From NCBI GenBank assembly GCA_048267905.1, contig JBLWWM010000001.1, positions 123,086-187,085 of the forward strand: DNA of 64,000 nt, written 5' to 3'. Shown here one piece after another: positions 1,393 through 11,343 of this stretch. Positions within the stretch are counted from its first letter, which is position 1. Each line of letters starts with the position of its first letter. The notes below the pieces were generated by a model. That model was not told where the DNA came from. It saw only the letters and a list, made by a program, of their open reading frames with translations, and searched no databases. This DNA is from Balneola sp. (GTDB lineage: Bacteria; Bacteroidota; Rhodothermia; Balneolales; Balneolaceae). A program made the position numbers and the translations under genes.

Positions 1393-1578
1393 TTCGTTAA
1401 CACCCCAATTATTTTGGGCTTTATCGATTTCTACTAAATAGCATCGTTTCCCAAATCTCCTACAAAAAGAGGTTAATAATTTCTATATACTTGAGTGCCG
1501 TTTCTTGCATGGTTTTAGGAAATAAAATCAAAAGAATGGCTTCTACTTTTTCGAGTTTCAACCTCATTTAATCACACT

Positions 1579-2913
1579 ATGGAATACATTTTTATCCTCA
1601 TTTCTTTAATTATTGGCGCCGTTGCAGGTTTCTTTATTGCGCACTTTAAATCCAAATCTGAACTTTCTAGATTGGAAGAACGGAACACAAATTTGGACGC
1701 TCAGGTCAATGAAACAGAAAATAAATTTCAACAGCTAGCTAAAGAAAGTGAAGCAAAGTTAGAAGTTGCACAAAGGGAGAAAGAGTTAGAATTAAAAGAA
1801 GAGCGAGAGAAGTCTGCCGATTTGGATAGAAATCTCGCAGGCTTAAAAGCTGAGTATTCCTCACTCCAACAGAAACTGGCTGAGCAAAAAGATGAGCTCG
1901 CCGGAATGCAGGAACAGCTAAAAATTCAATTTGAGAATTTGGCGAATAAGATTTTGGATGAGAAATCAGCAAAGTTCACCAAACAAAACAGAGAAAGTTT
2001 AGATCAGCTTTTGAATCCACTTGGGTTGAAGTTGGAAGAGTTTAAGAAGAAAGTAGAAGAGACTTACAACGAAGAAAATCGTCAACGTGCTACGTTAAAA
2101 GAGCAAATCCGCCAGATGGGTGAGCTGAACCAAAAGATGAGTGAAGATGCGAAGAACCTGACACGAGCTTTGAAAGGAGATAGCAAAGCCCAAGGGAATT
2201 GGGGCGAAGTTATTCTTGAACGGATTCTGGAGAAATCTGGGCTCACAAAAGGCAGAGAGTATGAGGTTCAAGTATCTGCAACCAATGAAGAGGGAAGACG
2301 CCTACAGCCTGATGTGGTAGTTCATCTCCCTGGTGAAAAGTTCCTGATTGTTGATTCTAAAGTGACATTAACGGCTTACGAACGTTATGCATCTTCCGAA
2401 GATGACTTAGAAAAAGCAACTGCGCTGAAACAGCACATTAGCTCGGTTAGAGCCCATGTAAAAGGTTTGAGTGAAAAGAAATACCATCAAATTCATGGTG
2501 ATAGAAGTCCTGACTTTGTGCTTCTCTTTATTCCGATAGAATCTGCTTTTGGTGTGGCTCTTCAAAATGATGCTAATTTGTATTACGAAGCCTTTGATCG
2601 CAACATCGTAATCGTAAGTCCTTCTACATTACTGGCAACTTTAGCGACTATCGATAGCGTCTGGAAGCAAGAGTACCAAAGCAAAAATGCGCTAGAAATT
2701 GCACAACGAGGCGGCGCTCTGTACGATAAGTTTGTTCTATTTGTTGAAAGCTTGGATAAAATTGGGGATCGAATTAAGCAAACTCAGCAAAGCTATGACG
2801 AAGCCCGAACTCGCCTTACCGAAGGTTCTGGAAATCTAGTTCGTCAAGCAGAGATGCTCAAAGAACTGGGTGCAAAAGCCACAAAAAAATTGCCAAGTAG
2901 CACCCAAGAGTAG
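1579..2913 (+). CDS. rmuC: DNA recombination protein RmuC
   Basis: N-terminal TM helix and coiled coil, then QGNWGE, RLQPDVVVHLP, IVDSKV, SPDFVLLFIP, IVSPSTL. Confidence 0.95.
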   Translation: MEYIFILISLIIGAVAGFFIAHFKSKSELSRLEERNTNLDAQVNETENKFQQLAKESEAKLEVAQREKELELKEEREKSADLDRNLAGLKAEYSSLQQKLAEQKDELAGMQEQLKIQFENLANKILDEKSAKFTKQNRESLDQLLNPLGLKLEEFKKKVEETYNEENRQRATLKEQIRQMGELNQKMSEDAKNLTRALKGDSKAQGNWGEVILERILEKSGLTKGREYEVQVSATNEEGRRLQPDVVVHLPGEKFLIVDSKVTLTAYERYASSEDDLEKATALKQHISSVRAHVKGLSEKKYHQIHGDRSPDFVLLFIPIESAFGVALQNDANLYYEAFDRNIVIVSPSTLLATLATIDSVWKQEYQSKNALEIAQRGGALYDKFVLFVESLDKIGDRIKQTQQSYDEARTRLTEGSGNLVRQAEMLKELGAKATKKLPSSTQE

Positions 2914-2937
2914 CTTGGTAGCAATAAAGCCAGATAT

Positions 2938-2969
2938 ACCCTATAATCTCTCGTAAGAAAGTATAGGGT
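2938..2969 (+). terminator. Hairpin downstream of rmuC (possible terminator)
   Basis: ACCCTATA...TATAGGGT inverted repeat; no clear U-tract. Confidence 0.4.
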
Positions 2970-3000
2970 CGTCATTGTAGAAATCATTATGGTTTCAATA

Positions 3001-3053
3001 AATTAAACAACGCTCACCGCCATCCTGAAGATACCTCTGAAGGATCTTCACAG
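3001..3053. repeat. REP-like palindromic repeat, module A copy 1
   Basis: CATCCTGAAGATACCTCTGAAGGATCTTCACAG (3021-3053) is identical to 4579-4611; both copies are preceded by AATTAAACA. Confidence 0.85.
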
Positions 3054-3340
3054 CTATTAAAAAGCAATGGTTTTGTTCGCAGGTGATAGCTGATCTTACC
3101 TTCACATTATTTACGTGTTTGCTAATGCATTCATCTCATTGATGGGTGTACTTTTGTGCCGCCCCCGAATGCTCGGGGCAGGCGAGTACCAAAAGCTCTC
3201 GACAAGAATAATTGGCGCGAACTTCATTGCATCGACTCAATCATTCCAATGGTCTTCGTCCTTCTATTGCCACAGTCAAACCCGAGCCGGTGTGGAATGA
3301 TTGCTCCTATCGGAGACGTCTATTCCATTGCGTTCTTTCT

Positions 3341-3392
3341 TCGCCAATAATTCTAAACGTCGATGTGGTTTGGTGGGCGTATTGACATTCTG
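3341..3392. repeat. Repeat module B copy 1
   Basis: 52 bp matching 4639-4690 with 2 mismatches. Confidence 0.9.
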
Positions 3393-3598
3393 AAGGAAAT
3401 CAAAAAGCTATTTCTGTCAACGAATTACTTAGCATCTACAATTATAATGATACTTCCGAAGAACCTTCAAAACTAACTTTCCATTTAATTGCTTATTTCC
3501 GTGATCGTTATTTCACTAATCTATCTGATATTGGCACGAACTTCATTATAGATCAGAACTTTTTAACTTGTATATAGTTCAAACGCCAAACTTAGGTA

Positions 3599-4540
3599 AT
3601 GAGAACTATGAGTAATTATCGCCAAAAATTACGAGGTCGTTTAGCTTCCATAAAAAGGATTAGGTGGAAAAAAGTATTTAAAATTTTCAGCCTATCAATA
3701 GTCCTTGCACTTAGTTTATTGTTAGGAACTGTTTTCTCTTTGCGATGGATAAATCCGCCCTTCACTGCTTTTACATTGCAAGAAGATTGGGACAAACTCG
3801 GAGTAAAGCGCTACAGTTTGAGGCAATACTGGGTCGATTACGAATCTTTTCCTGATAATATAAAATGGGCTGTTGTAGCATCAGAAGACCAACTATTTTG
3901 GGAACATTCTGGATTGGATACTGAAGCCATCGGAAAAGCATTAGATGAAAAAGAGAAAGGAGAGCGCGTGCGTGGCGCTAGTACTATTACTCAGCAAGTA
4001 GCTAAAAATTTATTTCTAAATAGTAGTAAATCGTATGTAAGAAAAGGAGTAGAAGCAGGCCTCGCATTGACAATTGAAGTAATGTGGACGAAAGAACGAA
4101 TTTTAGAAGTATATCTTAATATCGCCGAGTTTGGTCCAGGAGTTTACGGAGTTGGTAAAGCAACAAACCATTTCTTTAATAAAGATGCTCGGTATCTAAA
4201 AGCGGATGAAGCAGCTCGAATGGCCGCTGTACTTCCCAATCCAAAAAGAATGCGAGTGGAGCCAGCTTCACCCTATGTGAACAAAAGGAAATCGTGGATT
4301 CTACGAAATATGATGAATTTAAGTGGCGTAGCATATTATAAGAAACCAGTACCCGTGCAAACTCCAGACAGCTCAAATGTGGATACAAATTCAATTTCAA
4401 ACCAATTCTATATTCCAAAAGCAGATGTTTCAGTATTGGATCTAAACTTAGAAGTATCAACCTCAAATAGTTCTGATAGCTCTGAAGCGGATTCCATTGA
4501 GCAAAAAGCGGATACAGTCATCCATGTAGATAATAGATAA
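3599..4540 (+). CDS. mtgA: Monofunctional biosynthetic peptidoglycan transglycosylase
   Basis: VVASEDQLFWEHSGLD, RGASTITQQVAKNLFL, KERILEVYLNIAEFGPGVYG, AARMAAVLPNP; Ser-rich C-terminal tail. Confidence 0.93.
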   Translation: MRTMSNYRQKLRGRLASIKRIRWKKVFKIFSLSIVLALSLLLGTVFSLRWINPPFTAFTLQEDWDKLGVKRYSLRQYWVDYESFPDNIKWAVVASEDQLFWEHSGLDTEAIGKALDEKEKGERVRGASTITQQVAKNLFLNSSKSYVRKGVEAGLALTIEVMWTKERILEVYLNIAEFGPGVYGVGKATNHFFNKDARYLKADEAARMAAVLPNPKRMRVEPASPYVNKRKSWILRNMMNLSGVAYYKKPVPVQTPDSSNVDTNSISNQFYIPKADVSVLDLNLEVSTSNSSDSSEADSIEQKADTVIHVDNR

Positions 4541-8166: not shown

Positions 8167-8421
8167 TTAACCCTCGTTATCGGTTTCAGTTCTGTAGAAT
8201 ATGAGCAATGTGGTGAAAGAAAGTACCAAAATAAGAACAACCCAAACTAACGACATCGGGAACCCTAGAATAAGCGGTACTGCATTCGCGAAAATGGGGT
8301 AAATCGGCCAAATCAGACACAACTGAAAGAAGGCCAATACACCAACTAAAATAAGCCCTCTTCTTCGTCGATTGGAATCTTTAGCCGAAAAAATAAGGGT
8401 TTTGGGGATTTTATTGGACAT
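8167..8421 (-). CDS. Small membrane partner of the SSS symporter (DUF3311/DUF485-like)
   Basis: 84 aa with two TM helices and PLILGFPMSLVW; directly upstream of the SSS gene. Confidence 0.75.
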   Translation of the reverse strand: MSNKIPKTLIFSAKDSNRRRRGLILVGVLAFFQLCLIWPIYPIFANAVPLILGFPMSLVWVVLILVLSFTTLLIFYRTETDNEG

Positions 8422-8437
8422 GTTTGGTTTATACTGT

Positions 8438-10642
8438 TTATTCTATTACACATTCAAAGATACCTAAGACATCAAATGATGATAGGTCATCGTCTTTTAG
8501 AACTATATTTTCGTATCTAACATCTGTTGATTTAGGTTTTAGAATAATAGATTGATGCCTCCACACGCCATCTTGTTCATATTTTTTGCTTTCATATTCT
8601 TTGATTGTGTAGGAAGAGCCAAAGTCCGAATCATTTATATGTGTACTTTTTACTAATACAATTTTACCATTTCTAGAACCGCCATTATCTTTTTTGAATA
8701 AACACCAAGAGCCATTTTTAATTTTTTTATTCATTGATTCACCAATAACTTGGCAAACGAAGTAACCTTCTCTTGCTGATATAGCCATGGGTAATTCGAC
8801 CCACTCATAATTCTCGTATTCAGCTTGATTTTGTAAATCGCTAAACTTTCCAGCGGCAGTGTATATGTCGAGTAAGGGAACTGCATTGACATATGGTTTA
8901 ACATCTGTAAATGGCAAAGGCCTAAGTGTACTCTTAGCTTTGTAAGGATTAATATGCTCTTTAAAGTATTCACTCAAGTTTTTGTCGCAAGCATAGATAT
9001 ATGTACCTCTTATTCCTCTGTACATAATAGTTTTGTAAATATTAATTATATAGGCTTTTAAATCTTCATCCGTTGCTTGTTGTTTTCCATATTTATCAAA
9101 ATAGTTGTCACTTATTATTTCAATTTCCTTGGTTTGTTTATTATATACAATTTCTTCACCGAAAATAATTCCAGTATAGTTTAAATCATAACCTTGCGTA
9201 GTATGAATACTTCCAACTTCGTTAAAAGCATTTGGTGAATTAATCCAATCATCAGGTGTTCTATTCCATTGAAACTTAAGTCCTTCAATTTCAATATCCA
9301 TTGCATCAGGTGTCTCACCCCGTACATCTGAAATCCAGGGCCATGAATAGCCTGCAATTAGTCTACATAAGCCATGCTTTTCTTCTTTGATAGTTAATTG
9401 TTCATACATGTCTACTAAAGAGTCAAAGATCACCAAATCATAATTTTCATCCAGGTACTTTTCTTTTTCGTTACGTTTGATATTTAAAAGAAGGTCTACA
9501 AATGTTATGTAATCATTACCGCCTTTAGAACGCATTTGCGATTGTAACTCTATTTCAATTGTGTTTTTTTCATTTAGAAGTTTCTCAAAATGAGAAGATG
9601 GAATATCAGATGGTTTAACTGATTGTGCAGAATCGTAGAAGAATATTTGATTCTTACTATTTGCAATTATCCAGTCTAATTCTGTACCAGTATCATCCAA
9701 ACCTAGGCTTCGATTATTTTTTTTGAAAGCACCCATCCAGCTGATGTTTTTATATTGCCTTAAGCGATGAGCCTCATCAATAATTAGCAAATCATATTTC
9801 TTTTTGAAAGTGTTTGAAGGACCAATTATCATTGATGATTTTAAATCTGGTATTTTACGAAATACATTTTGCAACGTTTTTCGTAATGAACTCATAGCAA
9901 TAACAATTCCAATTTTTGCTTCTGGATAATTCTTTTTAAACGCTCGTATTAAATTAATTTCTTGGATTTCATTATCACTGAAATCATCCATATTCGTATC
10001 TGAAACATCAGAGCTAAGTAGTTTTATTAAATAGGTGGCAAGAATTGTTTTTCCCGTACCAGCACTTCCTTTAACGAAGATTTTACTTGAGTCATTCTGC
10101 GTTAAAGTTCCAATAATTTCTAAAACAGAATTGTACTGACTTTCATTAAGAGATTTGTAAGGAGAATATTTAAATAGTTCTGAATTTTCAATTTCTTCGA
10201 GTGACTTACTAACTATATTATTCTCAATTAACTTACCCCAAATTTCTTTGAAAAGGTTTTTATATAAGTCTTGTTGATAATAGTTGTGGTTAATTAAACC
10301 ATGATTCCCGTTCTGTAATTCATAAGTACCTTCTGATGATATGTATTGAATTAATTTTGATTCTATATCAAGCGTAGCAGATTTATTAAACTTGTCAGAA
10401 CCAATTATGGATAGTTGATTAAAAGCATTAGCTTTTTTTGGATTAGCTAAATGATCTTTAATCCGACTTGAGAAATTAGTGGATTCTCCCACATAAGCAA
10501 CTTTCTTAGATTCGTTTTGAATAAAATATACCAAAGGCCACTGGTTCTTTACCCAAGGATTTTCATAGATGCTATCTAAAGATTTTTTATCAAAACCATA
10601 ACGCTCTGAAATTTCTATTGATAAATGAAAGGATAAACTCAT
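8438..10642 (-). CDS. GIY-YIG nuclease / DUF2075 (Schlafen group-3-like) helicase / S24 (LexA-like) peptidase-domain fusion
   Basis: N-terminal LVY..AYVGES..R..H..E..N (GIY-YIG); Walker A GSAGTGKT (aa 192-199); DEAH (aa 289); VGSIHTTQGYDL; C-terminal TAAG, VIGESM and YTIKEY (S24). Confidence 0.85.
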   Translation of the reverse strand: MSLSFHLSIEISERYGFDKKSLDSIYENPWVKNQWPLVYFIQNESKKVAYVGESTNFSSRIKDHLANPKKANAFNQLSIIGSDKFNKSATLDIESKLIQYISSEGTYELQNGNHGLINHNYYQQDLYKNLFKEIWGKLIENNIVSKSLEEIENSELFKYSPYKSLNESQYNSVLEIIGTLTQNDSSKIFVKGSAGTGKTILATYLIKLLSSDVSDTNMDDFSDNEIQEINLIRAFKKNYPEAKIGIVIAMSSLRKTLQNVFRKIPDLKSSMIIGPSNTFKKKYDLLIIDEAHRLRQYKNISWMGAFKKNNRSLGLDDTGTELDWIIANSKNQIFFYDSAQSVKPSDIPSSHFEKLLNEKNTIEIELQSQMRSKGGNDYITFVDLLLNIKRNEKEKYLDENYDLVIFDSLVDMYEQLTIKEEKHGLCRLIAGYSWPWISDVRGETPDAMDIEIEGLKFQWNRTPDDWINSPNAFNEVGSIHTTQGYDLNYTGIIFGEEIVYNKQTKEIEIISDNYFDKYGKQQATDEDLKAYIINIYKTIMYRGIRGTYIYACDKNLSEYFKEHINPYKAKSTLRPLPFTDVKPYVNAVPLLDIYTAAGKFSDLQNQAEYENYEWVELPMAISAREGYFVCQVIGESMNKKIKNGSWCLFKKDNGGSRNGKIVLVKSTHINDSDFGSSYTIKEYESKKYEQDGVWRHQSIILKPKSTDVRYENIVLKDDDLSSFDVLGIFECVIE

Positions 10643-10968
10643 AAATCAGTATACTTTGTAGCAGTTCCTTTTGCCTTATCTACAGGGTATTTCTTTCCGT
10701 TCAGTTGGATTTTTTCCAACAAGATTTCTTTAATATTGAATCCATACTTTTCTGCTAATAGAAAAGCATAAGCAAGAACATCGGCCAACTCTTCTTTAAC
10801 TTTTTCTTTAACAGCTTCTTCATGAGATTTCCATAAGAAGTTTTCTAAAAGTTCCCCTGCTTCGATATTTAGAGCTAAAGCGAGATCTTTTGGATTGTGA
10901 AATTGCTCCCAGTCTCTATCATTCCTGAACTTTATCAGGGCGTTAGTTATTTCTTTAATATCACTCAT
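10639..10968 (-). CDS. MazG-like nucleotide pyrophosphohydrolase (dCTPase/RS21-C6-like)
   Basis: FRNDRDWEQFHNPKDLA, EAGELLE, EELADV, KYP; 4-nt ATGA overlap with the helicase gene. Confidence 0.92.
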   Translation of the reverse strand: MSDIKEITNALIKFRNDRDWEQFHNPKDLALALNIEAGELLENFLWKSHEEAVKEKVKEELADVLAYAFLLAEKYGFNIKEILLEKIQLNGKKYPVDKAKGTATKYTDL

Positions 10969-11107
10969 ATCTTATTCTCTTAATGAAACATAATTTTTAT
11001 ATAAAATACATTACATAAAAAGTTTGGGAGCCAAGGGCATGCTAAGAAACCATTAGCTTAAACTATTTATAGTAACAGCAGTCAATAAAAGCAAAACAAA
11101 CGCAAGT

Positions 11108-11150
11108 CACTTTTAATCGTTTTACACATAGACTAAAATGATTAAAAGTG
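11108..11150. other. 17-bp near-perfect inverted repeat
   Basis: CACTTTTAATCGTTTTA-cacatagac-TAAAATGATTAAAAGTG, with one G:T pair. Confidence 0.75.
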
Positions 11151-11343
11151 AATTACTTTCAAAATACAAAAGTAAGCGTATCCTCAAAATTTATAGTAGA
11201 AGAGAGTACAAGTTTTTAGATAGAAATTTAGCTTCATCAAAGTCTCTAAATCTCTGATTATCGAATTCCACAATTCATCAAAATTTAAACCAAATCCAAA
11301 ATCGGGGAACACTTGGAATTAAAATTGCATTATCTTCGGTAAC

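Follow-up and report, generated by a model that had tools for sequence, protein, structure and literature searches.

A horizontally mobile gene pair encoding a GIY-YIG nuclease/DUF2075 helicase/S24 fusion and a MazG-like pyrophosphatase in Balneola: a candidate accessory defence cassette

What might two overlapping, AT-rich genes be doing between an SSS transporter operon and uvrC in the genome of a Balneola species? The genes lie in a 64,000-nucleotide stretch of contig JBLWWM010000001.1 (assembly GCA_048267905.1, positions 123,086 to 187,085; hereafter the window), and encode a 734-amino acid (aa) fusion of a GIY-YIG nuclease, a DUF2075-type helicase, and an S24 peptidase domain, together with a 109-aa MazG-like nucleotide pyrophosphatase. 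A sequence-only reading of the window had proposed that they form a two-component anti-phage module. Here we present comparative evidence supporting the view that the two genes belong together as a single obligate unit that moves horizontally. We consider the chances to be about even that this cassette is a self-contained accessory anti-phage or anti-mobile-element system of the nuclease-DUF2075-helicase kind represented by Nhi, Nhi-like, and AbiO, and we regard a role in defence as probable when all defence readings are taken together. Judged from its sequence, it is unlike the Nhi and AbiO proteins known so far in having a GIY-YIG nuclease, an obligate DCTPP1-like partner, and a LexA-type tail predicted to cleave itself. 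Coordinates of all features are collected in Table 1.

The pairing of the two genes was assessed using the best 80 loci of at least 533 relatives in the genome collection, which span the Flavobacteriales, Chitinophagales, Sphingobacteriales, Cytophagales, and Saprospiraceae, with 82 loci scored for the partner. The MazG-like gene is found directly upstream of the large gene in every one of the 82 (loci at 47-79% identity), and the two reading frames overlap in the same way in 66 of them. Based on crude gene calling and clustering, only the two cassette genes are common to all loci, the next most frequent neighbour being present in 14 loci and the rest in six or fewer. Within the genus of the window, MazG-like genes occur in exactly 5 of 23 genomes, always with a DUF2075 partner, which is of the GIY-YIG/S24 type in two genomes and a 623-aa PD-(D/E)xK+DUF2075 protein in the other three (G008, locus L010 1483-3686; G003; G005), where the MazG-like gene is 72% identical to that of the window. 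The MazG-like gene also stands upstream of relatives that lack S24 (47% and 33% identity, and 34% for a Bacillus thuringiensis plasmid copy whose MazG-like protein is 49% identical to the window's), and in two viral-contig loci (L129/L130) it is located downstream of the helicase gene. Two other relatives have no MazG-like gene. Given that the linkage survives changes of gene order, nuclease type, and S24 presence, there is strong comparative evidence that pairing is functionally required, and the two-component unit envisaged by the sequence-only reading is upheld.

The family is large and is not a PADLOC v2 system. In addition to the loci found in the genome collection, a library of 1.84 billion representatives yielded 3,133 clusters at E<=1e-3, a number that falls to 457 at E<=1e-30, and the family extends over Bacteroidota and the megaplasmids of Bacillota, with 69 records of S24-less relatives on Bacillus cereus-group megaplasmids. 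Among the top 150 clusters, about a dozen are full length with S24, while most are GIY-YIG+DUF2075 proteins of 550-600 aa. Since most relatives lack S24, the core system consists of a MazG-like protein and a nuclease-DUF2075 protein. The three-domain-plus-MazG architecture that had been described is consequently real, but characterizes a sub-clade only.

Several minor observations concern the layout of these loci. A protein of approximately 657 aa that combines TPR repeats at its N-terminus with an HExxH motif (MHELVH) is encoded directly upstream of the MazG-like gene in 14 of the 82 loci, on the same strand, at a distance of 0-5 nt, and in several orders (e.g. L019:7699-9672, L020, L033, L043, L087). 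No PADLOC or NCBIfam match beyond TPR was obtained for this protein, which may be an optional third component. In locus L027 (7549-8503) the MazG-like and helicase genes do not overlap and are 619 nt apart, a gap that may be due to an insertion between them. Downstream of the PD-(D/E)xK+DUF2075 pair in the congeners there are two open reading frames (ORFs), of 284 and 90 aa, of unassigned function.

Comparison with congeners reveals the boundaries of the cassette. The closest of these (G001; UvrC 97% identical) has an empty site, in which 46 bp separate the flank on the SSS-operon side from that on the uvrC side; in the window the same two flanks are 2,703 bp apart (8430-11132). The location between the SSS transporter operon and uvrC had been correctly described, and the minus strand, which reads ...TTA TGA / ATG AGT... 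where the small gene ends and the large one begins, bears out the ATGA overlap. An earlier hand estimate of roughly 30% versus 40% GC content was also close to the computed values of 31.2% for the insert and 40-43% for the flanking genes; the genome as a whole is at 37.4%, and the insert (z=-3.1) falls into the lowest 0.4% among 7,448 genomic segments of equal size. In congener G009 the same site (L114 2908-6099) holds a gene for a methyltransferase/restriction-type protein of 1,063 aa that has an NPPY motif and weakly matches the MADS methyltransferase MAD2, and in G020 (L115 2315-4520) it holds a CHASE histidine kinase and a response regulator. The SSS-operon/uvrC intergenic site is a variable integration hotspot with no visible integrase. 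Neither a target-site duplication nor an integrase was found at the insertion, where only an imperfect inverted repeat extends across the right junction, its right arm being part of the conserved flank. There is no tRNA or Rfam element near the cassette and no further ORF within it, and scans for sigma-70 promoters and terminators gave nothing beyond chance.

Sequence comparisons clearly point to acquisition of the cassette by horizontal transfer. It shares 65-79% identity with cassettes of distant genomes, against only 37-42% for UvrC of the same genomes, while the opposite holds for congener G013 (UvrC 79%, cassette 48%). Only one of 22 congeners has a full-length homologue of the large protein, at 48% identity, and carriers make up 3 of 150 evenly sampled genomes (approximately 2%) of the carrier-rich family containing Ulvibacter. 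The vertical inheritance with conserved synteny that the sequence-only reading had set against its own proposal was not seen; instead, distribution is patchy, an empty site exists, and flanks are variable. Because the flanks differ in all other loci, the adjacency to uvrC is accidental. On the other side, the SSS-transporter operon begins with a gene for an 84-aa membrane protein, and the insertion stops 8 bp short of its start codon (8421-8438); the stop codon of the large gene precedes the same start codon by 16 nt. The insertion has thus separated the operon from its original upstream region, and the operon may now be transcribed by readthrough from the cassette.

The catalytic residues of the nuclease and helicase domains of the large protein are intact. 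Pfam identifies a GIY-YIG domain at residues 37-99 and an SLFN-g3_helicase/DUF2075 domain at 188-553 (PF09848, E=1e-64). Residue conservation was evaluated in an alignment of 79 homologues that are 54-78% identical, in which the GIY-YIG catalytic set (Y39, Y50, G52, R60, H64, E94, N111) and the helicase residues T196-G197-K198-T199 and D289/E290/H292 are invariant; together with S636 of the S24 domain, every catalytic residue singled out by the sequence-only reading is thus present and invariant. The AlphaFold (AF2) model (pLDDT 83) has as its Foldseek neighbours the superfamily 1B (SF1B) helicases Upf1, RecD2, Dda, Dna2, and nsp13, with SLFN14 far lower at rank 46, and there are weak NCBIfam matches to Cho and RecG. 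A modified-base reader domain (DUF3427, SRA/PUA, MrcB_N, and similar) was not detected in the 734-aa protein by Pfam, such readers being present only as separate neighbour genes of some relatives.

We deem the C-terminal S24 domain, which had been recognized previously but assigned no role, the most distinctive part of the protein. Its identity rests on a Pfam Peptidase_S24 match at 595-683 (27.5 bits versus a cut-off of 23.3), on its fold, and on a Ser-Lys dyad (S636 in a GESM motif, K681) that is invariant in the alignment, as is A597. G598 is retained in at least 90% of the homologues, giving a predicted cleavage site A596-A597-G598, which reads AAS in one homologue. When the S24 region was modelled alone (pLDDT 77), its top 22 Foldseek neighbours were all the LexA C-terminal domain, lambda cI, or UmuD/UmuD', including structures bound to the RecA filament. 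A single-sequence PDB search with the same region returned no match, and a profile search gave only a weak match to LexA (E=0.014), in which the Ala-Gly pair is aligned with the LexA cleavage-site region; the assignment became clear only with the structural comparison. The fold, the dyad, and an Ala-Gly site upstream of the core are common to this domain and to LexA, lambda cI, and UmuD (MEROPS S24), but the carrier in those proteins is a helix-turn-helix repressor or a polymerase subunit, and here a nuclease-helicase. The linker preceding the Ala-Gly site varies among homologues, and one of them (L003 of G038, 1468-3870) has a 56-aa Pro/Thr/Gly-rich insertion just before it; this variability is consistent with a flexible tether. 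The gene with the long linker is itself flanked by HipA-like and Fic-like genes.

The small protein matches Pfam PF12643 (MazG-like, E=6e-22), and its closest solved relatives in the PDB are mouse and human DCTPP1/RS21-C6 (E=2e-19), with which it aligns end to end, including the C-terminal KYTDL. The EXXE...EXXD metal ligands (E36/E39/E42 and E60/D63), reported as intact in the earlier reading, are indeed invariant in 36 sequences, and are shared with DCTPP1. The protein differs from the mammalian enzyme in being a minimal bacterial version of 109 aa whose gene shares an operon with that of a nuclease-helicase. By this resemblance it would most likely act on dCTP-type nucleotides, probably 5-modified ones.

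A parallel arrangement was found among type IV restriction enzymes of the SauUSI type. In four loci the cassette adjoins a gene for a 131-aa Nudix protein (MutT/NudG-like), followed by a gene for a 970-1,150-aa protein with PLD, ResIII, Helicase_C, DUF3427, and S24 domains, which PADLOC identifies as a type IV methyl-directed restriction enzyme (E=1.5e-239). A search using only the S24 region likewise recovered a SauUSI-like type IV enzyme whose S24 module is 66% identical to that of the window, as close as copies within the family to which the window protein belongs. A conserved MutT/Nudix gene has been described beside at least 60 SauUSI-like genes, its function being left open (Xu et al. 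2011, PMC3141236). The SauUSI-type enzymes with their Nudix protein are therefore like the cassette in coupling a nuclease-helicase fusion to a small deoxynucleoside triphosphate (dNTP) pyrophosphatase, and in the Bacteroidota the SauUSI-like versions, sometimes adjacent to the cassette, carry the same LexA-type S24 tail. Their nuclease (PLD), helicase (SF2), and pyrophosphatase (Nudix) are nevertheless all unrelated to those of the cassette, and they possess DUF3427 as a reader of 5-methylcytosine (5mC) and 5-hydroxymethylcytosine, while the window protein has no reader domain. It follows that two unrelated nuclease-helicases have the same tail, and that each is accompanied by a small dNTP pyrophosphatase of unrelated fold. 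Because all metal ligands of the MazG-like protein are kept and an unrelated Nudix enzyme occupies the same slot in the parallel system, the partner appears to be required for its catalysis.

Known defence proteins provide the nearest characterized precedents. Nhi of Staphylococcus epidermidis (SERP2475) is a PD-(D/E)xK+DUF2075 anti-phage protein (Bari et al., 10.1101/776245), the Nhi-like protein of B. cereus (SG141) has the same organisation and is a validated defence gene (Millman 2022), and lactococcal AbiO combines PD-(D/E)xK with a Schlafen-group-3 SF1B helicase (PMC13064643). The window protein resembles these three in having an N-terminal nuclease followed by a DUF2075/SF1B helicase and in being accessory and island-borne, and it shares the fold neighbours Dda, Upf1, and Dna2 with Nhi. 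It differs from them in its GIY-YIG nuclease, where theirs is PD-(D/E)xK, and while they act as single genes without S24, the window type is always paired with a MazG-like gene. DUF2075 fused to GIY-YIG has been noted next to DUF3427 nucleases, with a predicted role in phage attenuation (Lutz 2019, PMC6765204). The most relevant published record for the pair is the defence-candidate family 'Pyrophosphatase' in Table S2 of Millman 2022, which comprises a MazG-like pyrophosphatase and a DUF2075 protein from B. firmus (SG192) and B. thuringiensis (SG193). It follows the same operon logic as the cassette, but the DUF2075 proteins of the two candidates begin with a PD-(D/E)xK nuclease and lack S24. 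The MazG-like protein of the window shares 56% identity with the pyrophosphatase of SG193. The DUF2075 protein of SG192 shares 54% with the PD-(D/E)xK variant of the congeners, whereas its similarity to the window protein is confined to the N-core of the helicase and amounts to just 24% identity (E=2e-6).

Scans using PADLOC, NCBIfam, and PHROGs gave no named system for either protein, the matches being at the level of domains or partial; for PADLOC v2 on the window proteins these were AbiO over the helicase (1.7e-10), PDC-S14 over the GIY-YIG domain, and PDC-S41. S24-less relatives match the Nhi profile over the helicase core only (1e-8 to 1e-11). The sequence-only reading, which put forward no named system, was in agreement with PADLOC, but it did not name the Nhi/AbiO kind. 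We found no description in the literature of the GIY-YIG/S24 form or of any S24-gated nuclease. Group-3 Schlafens of eukaryotes (SLFN11, SLFN14), including the human Schlafens that respond to replication stress, have the helicase family PF09848 and a single-stranded DNA (ssDNA)/replication-stress theme in common with the window protein, but their nuclease is a Schlafen RNase core, they have neither S24 nor a pyrophosphatase partner, and the fold match is distant.

The genomic setting of the cassette is defence-like in that the cassette is patchy, occupies a hotspot, and has some restriction, Lamassu, and Gabija neighbours. In qualitative terms, 150 immediate neighbours included three type IV restriction genes, three LmuB, three type I restriction, two GajB, two PDC-S41, and two DRT. 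Further neighbours include Fic, RhuM, and HipA, and genes of toxin-antitoxin type (HipA, Fic, zeta) are frequent. Two unusual loci were noted among the relatives. On Paenibacillus plasmid pY5S7-1 (L125 3522-6581), a GIY-YIG+DUF2075 protein has, in place of the MazG-like gene, an upstream gene for an MrcB_N+HNH protein, which is a type IV restriction-like modified-DNA reader/nuclease. In locus L121 (1-3723), a MazG-less relative stands beside two SLFN_AlbA_2+HATPase_c_4 (Schlafen-nuclease-type) genes, as well as Fic and HipA, and thus both halves of the eukaryotic Schlafen architecture are present as separate genes in one island.

If the cassette is a defence system of the Nhi and AbiO kind, the large protein would be the effector, its SF1B helicase loading onto ssDNA or branched DNA (for instance, intermediates of phage replication), and its GIY-YIG domain would cut the helicase-bound DNA, by analogy with Nhi, which uses a different nuclease. 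The S24 tail would serve as a post-translational switch, in which RecA-ssDNA filaments arising from phage replication or DNA damage may stimulate self-cleavage between Ala597 and Gly598 and so release a nuclease-helicase of approximately 597 aa. We favour activation or release by cleavage because the product 1-597 equals the natural S24-less enzymes, which presumably work alone; the opposite direction, inactivation by S24 cleavage at the time of the SOS response ('restriction alleviation'), is less favoured. The coupled pyrophosphatase would hydrolyse dCTP-type, likely 5-modified, nucleotides, and might thereby starve phages with modified DNA or keep breakdown products out of host DNA. More tentatively, it is possible that S24 is a portable sensor of RecA*-ssDNA that was grafted onto unrelated immune nuclease-helicases (GIY-YIG-DUF2075 and PLD-SF2-DUF3427) and switches them by self-cleavage without transcription, each of them needing a dNTP pyrophosphatase (MazG-like or Nudix) that acts on modified dCTP.

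A number of observations weigh against reading the cassette as a defence system of the Nhi and AbiO kind. SG192, the PD-(D/E)xK variant, was scored 'x', giving no protection against the phages tried, and cloning of SG193 failed (Millman 2022); overall, 21 of the 45 systems assayed in that study were protective against one or more of 26 phages. The Nhi profile (PADLOC PDLC02372) has no match to the window protein at E<=0.1, and in a BLASTP comparison of the window protein with SG141 (first 399 aa, as printed) the best E-value was 0.42, which is not significant. Enrichment of defence genes among neighbours is modest and qualitative only. The mirror-tree correlation of pairwise identities of the two genes is weak (r=0.19, over a narrow identity range), leaving co-evolution or physical interaction unsupported. 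The cassette is rare on viral sequence (four phage records, all weak, and 5 among 2.9 million viral contigs), although this is neutral as regards defence. Which way the S24 switch works and what the pyrophosphatase acts on are matters of pure inference, and so is the division of labour put forward in the sequence-only reading, with the helicase sensing, GIY-YIG cutting, and the MazG-like enzyme draining dNTPs. A UvrC-type nuclease fold, an SF1 helicase, a LexA/UmuD-type domain, and a pool sanitiser also fit a role in DNA damage. The proposal of an anti-phage module is partly supported, the genomic evidence being on its side and one negative phage test of a sister variant on the other. The low viral counts lead us to reject the idea that the cassette is phage-borne.

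Three other explanations need to be weighed against the same evidence. The large protein could act in type IV-like, modification-dependent restriction, attacking DNA with modified cytosine, either by itself or together with reader proteins encoded separately, while the DCTPP1-like enzyme destroys the 5-modified dCTP that is released and so guards against self-restriction, S24 cleavage during SOS serving as the off switch. The parallel build of the SauUSI-like enzymes in the Bacteroidota, with their Nudix partner and the same S24 module, speaks for this, as do the four loci in which both modules are adjacent, the pairing of relatives with MrcB_N-HNH or DUF3427 nucleases (PMC6765204), and the preference of DCTPP1 for 5-modified dCTP. 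We nonetheless think it unlikely, as the protein has no recognisable modification-reader domain, 5mC is not avoided, given that C5-cytosine methyltransferases (PF00145) are encoded in 11 of 23 carrier genomes, including that of the window, and the natural S24-less forms suggest that the cleaved product is active and not dead. A simple 5mC-dependent restriction enzyme, in particular, is weakened by the presence of C5-methyltransferases in half of the carrier genomes. On contig C5 (158441-160543) of the window's own genome, an open frame of 744 aa encodes two C5-cytosine methyltransferase domains in tandem.

The same folds could instead make up an accessory module for responding to or repairing DNA damage, in which a nuclease-helicase activated by RecA* acts at damaged forks or lesions while a sanitiser clears damaged dNTPs from the pool, the whole being mobile as an SOS add-on in the manner of umuDC or imuA-imuB-dnaE2. 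GIY-YIG is the UvrC/Cho nuclease fold, the weak Cho and RecG matches and the LexA/UmuD type of the S24 domain point the same way, MazG and DCTPP1 are house-cleaning enzymes, and a relative gave no protection when tested against phages in a heterologous host. A repair function is, however, poorly matched by a cassette that only about 2% of species carry, whose flanks are hypervariable, whose hotspot is occupied in a sister species by a restriction/methylase-type gene, and whose proximity to uvrC is accidental; moreover, the S24 module is common to proven type IV restriction-type enzymes and the nearest characterised DUF2075 nuclease-helicases are all anti-phage, such that we give this explanation a rather slim chance. 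It is very improbable that the pair is a selfish, toxin-antitoxin-like addiction cassette, in which a nuclease-helicase toxin is held in check by the co-translated pyrophosphatase and loss is harmful with no net benefit against phages. Translational coupling of a small upstream gene to a large, potentially toxic enzyme, one homologous operon that could not be cloned, and the frequency of toxin-antitoxin-type neighbours would all fit, but the small protein keeps all its catalytic metal ligands, which a simple binding antitoxin would not need, the gene order can be inverted, and the role is filled in SauUSI-like systems by an unrelated Nudix enzyme, which suggests a catalytic rather than a binding requirement.

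Should the cassette be functional in defence, it would add an obligate nucleotide-pyrophosphatase partner to the Nhi/AbiO class, which would also explain the Nudix gene beside SauUSI-type enzymes, and a self-cleaving LexA-type domain on the effector would form a direct link, at the protein level, between the RecA/SOS signal and DNA-degrading defence. If S24 were truly a portable sensor, a dNTP pyrophosphatase would be a general second component of this class of defence. The positions of the cassette, its domains, and its lesser features, among them an upstream region presumed to hold its own promoter, are as follows.

Table 1. Positions of the cassette and its features in the window, with the basis for each assignment.
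Feature	Position	Strand	Basis
Large gene: 734-aa GIY-YIG nuclease / SF1B (DUF2075/SLFN-g3) helicase / LexA-type S24 fusion	8438..10642	-	ORF, Pfam, alignment, AF2 model
MazG-like all-alpha NTP pyrophosphatase, 109 aa, DCTPP1-like	10639..10968	-	Pfam PF12643, PDB relatives, invariant ligands
ATGA stop/start overlap (translational coupling)	10639..10642	-	Sequence; recurs in 66/82 homologous loci
GIY-YIG nuclease domain, aa 37-115	10298..10534	-	Pfam PF01541, invariant residues
DUF2075 / Schlafen-group-3-type SF1B helicase, aa 188-553; Walker A 192-199, DEAH 289-292	8984..10081	-	Pfam PF09848, invariant motifs, fold matches
Predicted self-cleavage site Ala597-Gly598 (AAG)	8849..8854	-	Conservation; alignment with LexA cleavage-site region
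LexA/CI/UmuD-type S24 autopeptidase domain, aa 595-734; Ser636 8735-8737, Lys681 8600-8602	8441..8860	-	Pfam PF00717, Foldseek, invariant dyad
Inserted low-GC cassette, 2,703 bp, from SSS-transporter operon to uvrC upstream region	8430..11132	.	Empty site in congener G001; GC
Cassette-borne AT-rich upstream region, presumed own promoter	10969..11132	-	Within insert, missing from empty site
Imperfect 26-nt inverted repeat over right insertion junction	11099..11159	.	85% complementary, 9-nt loop

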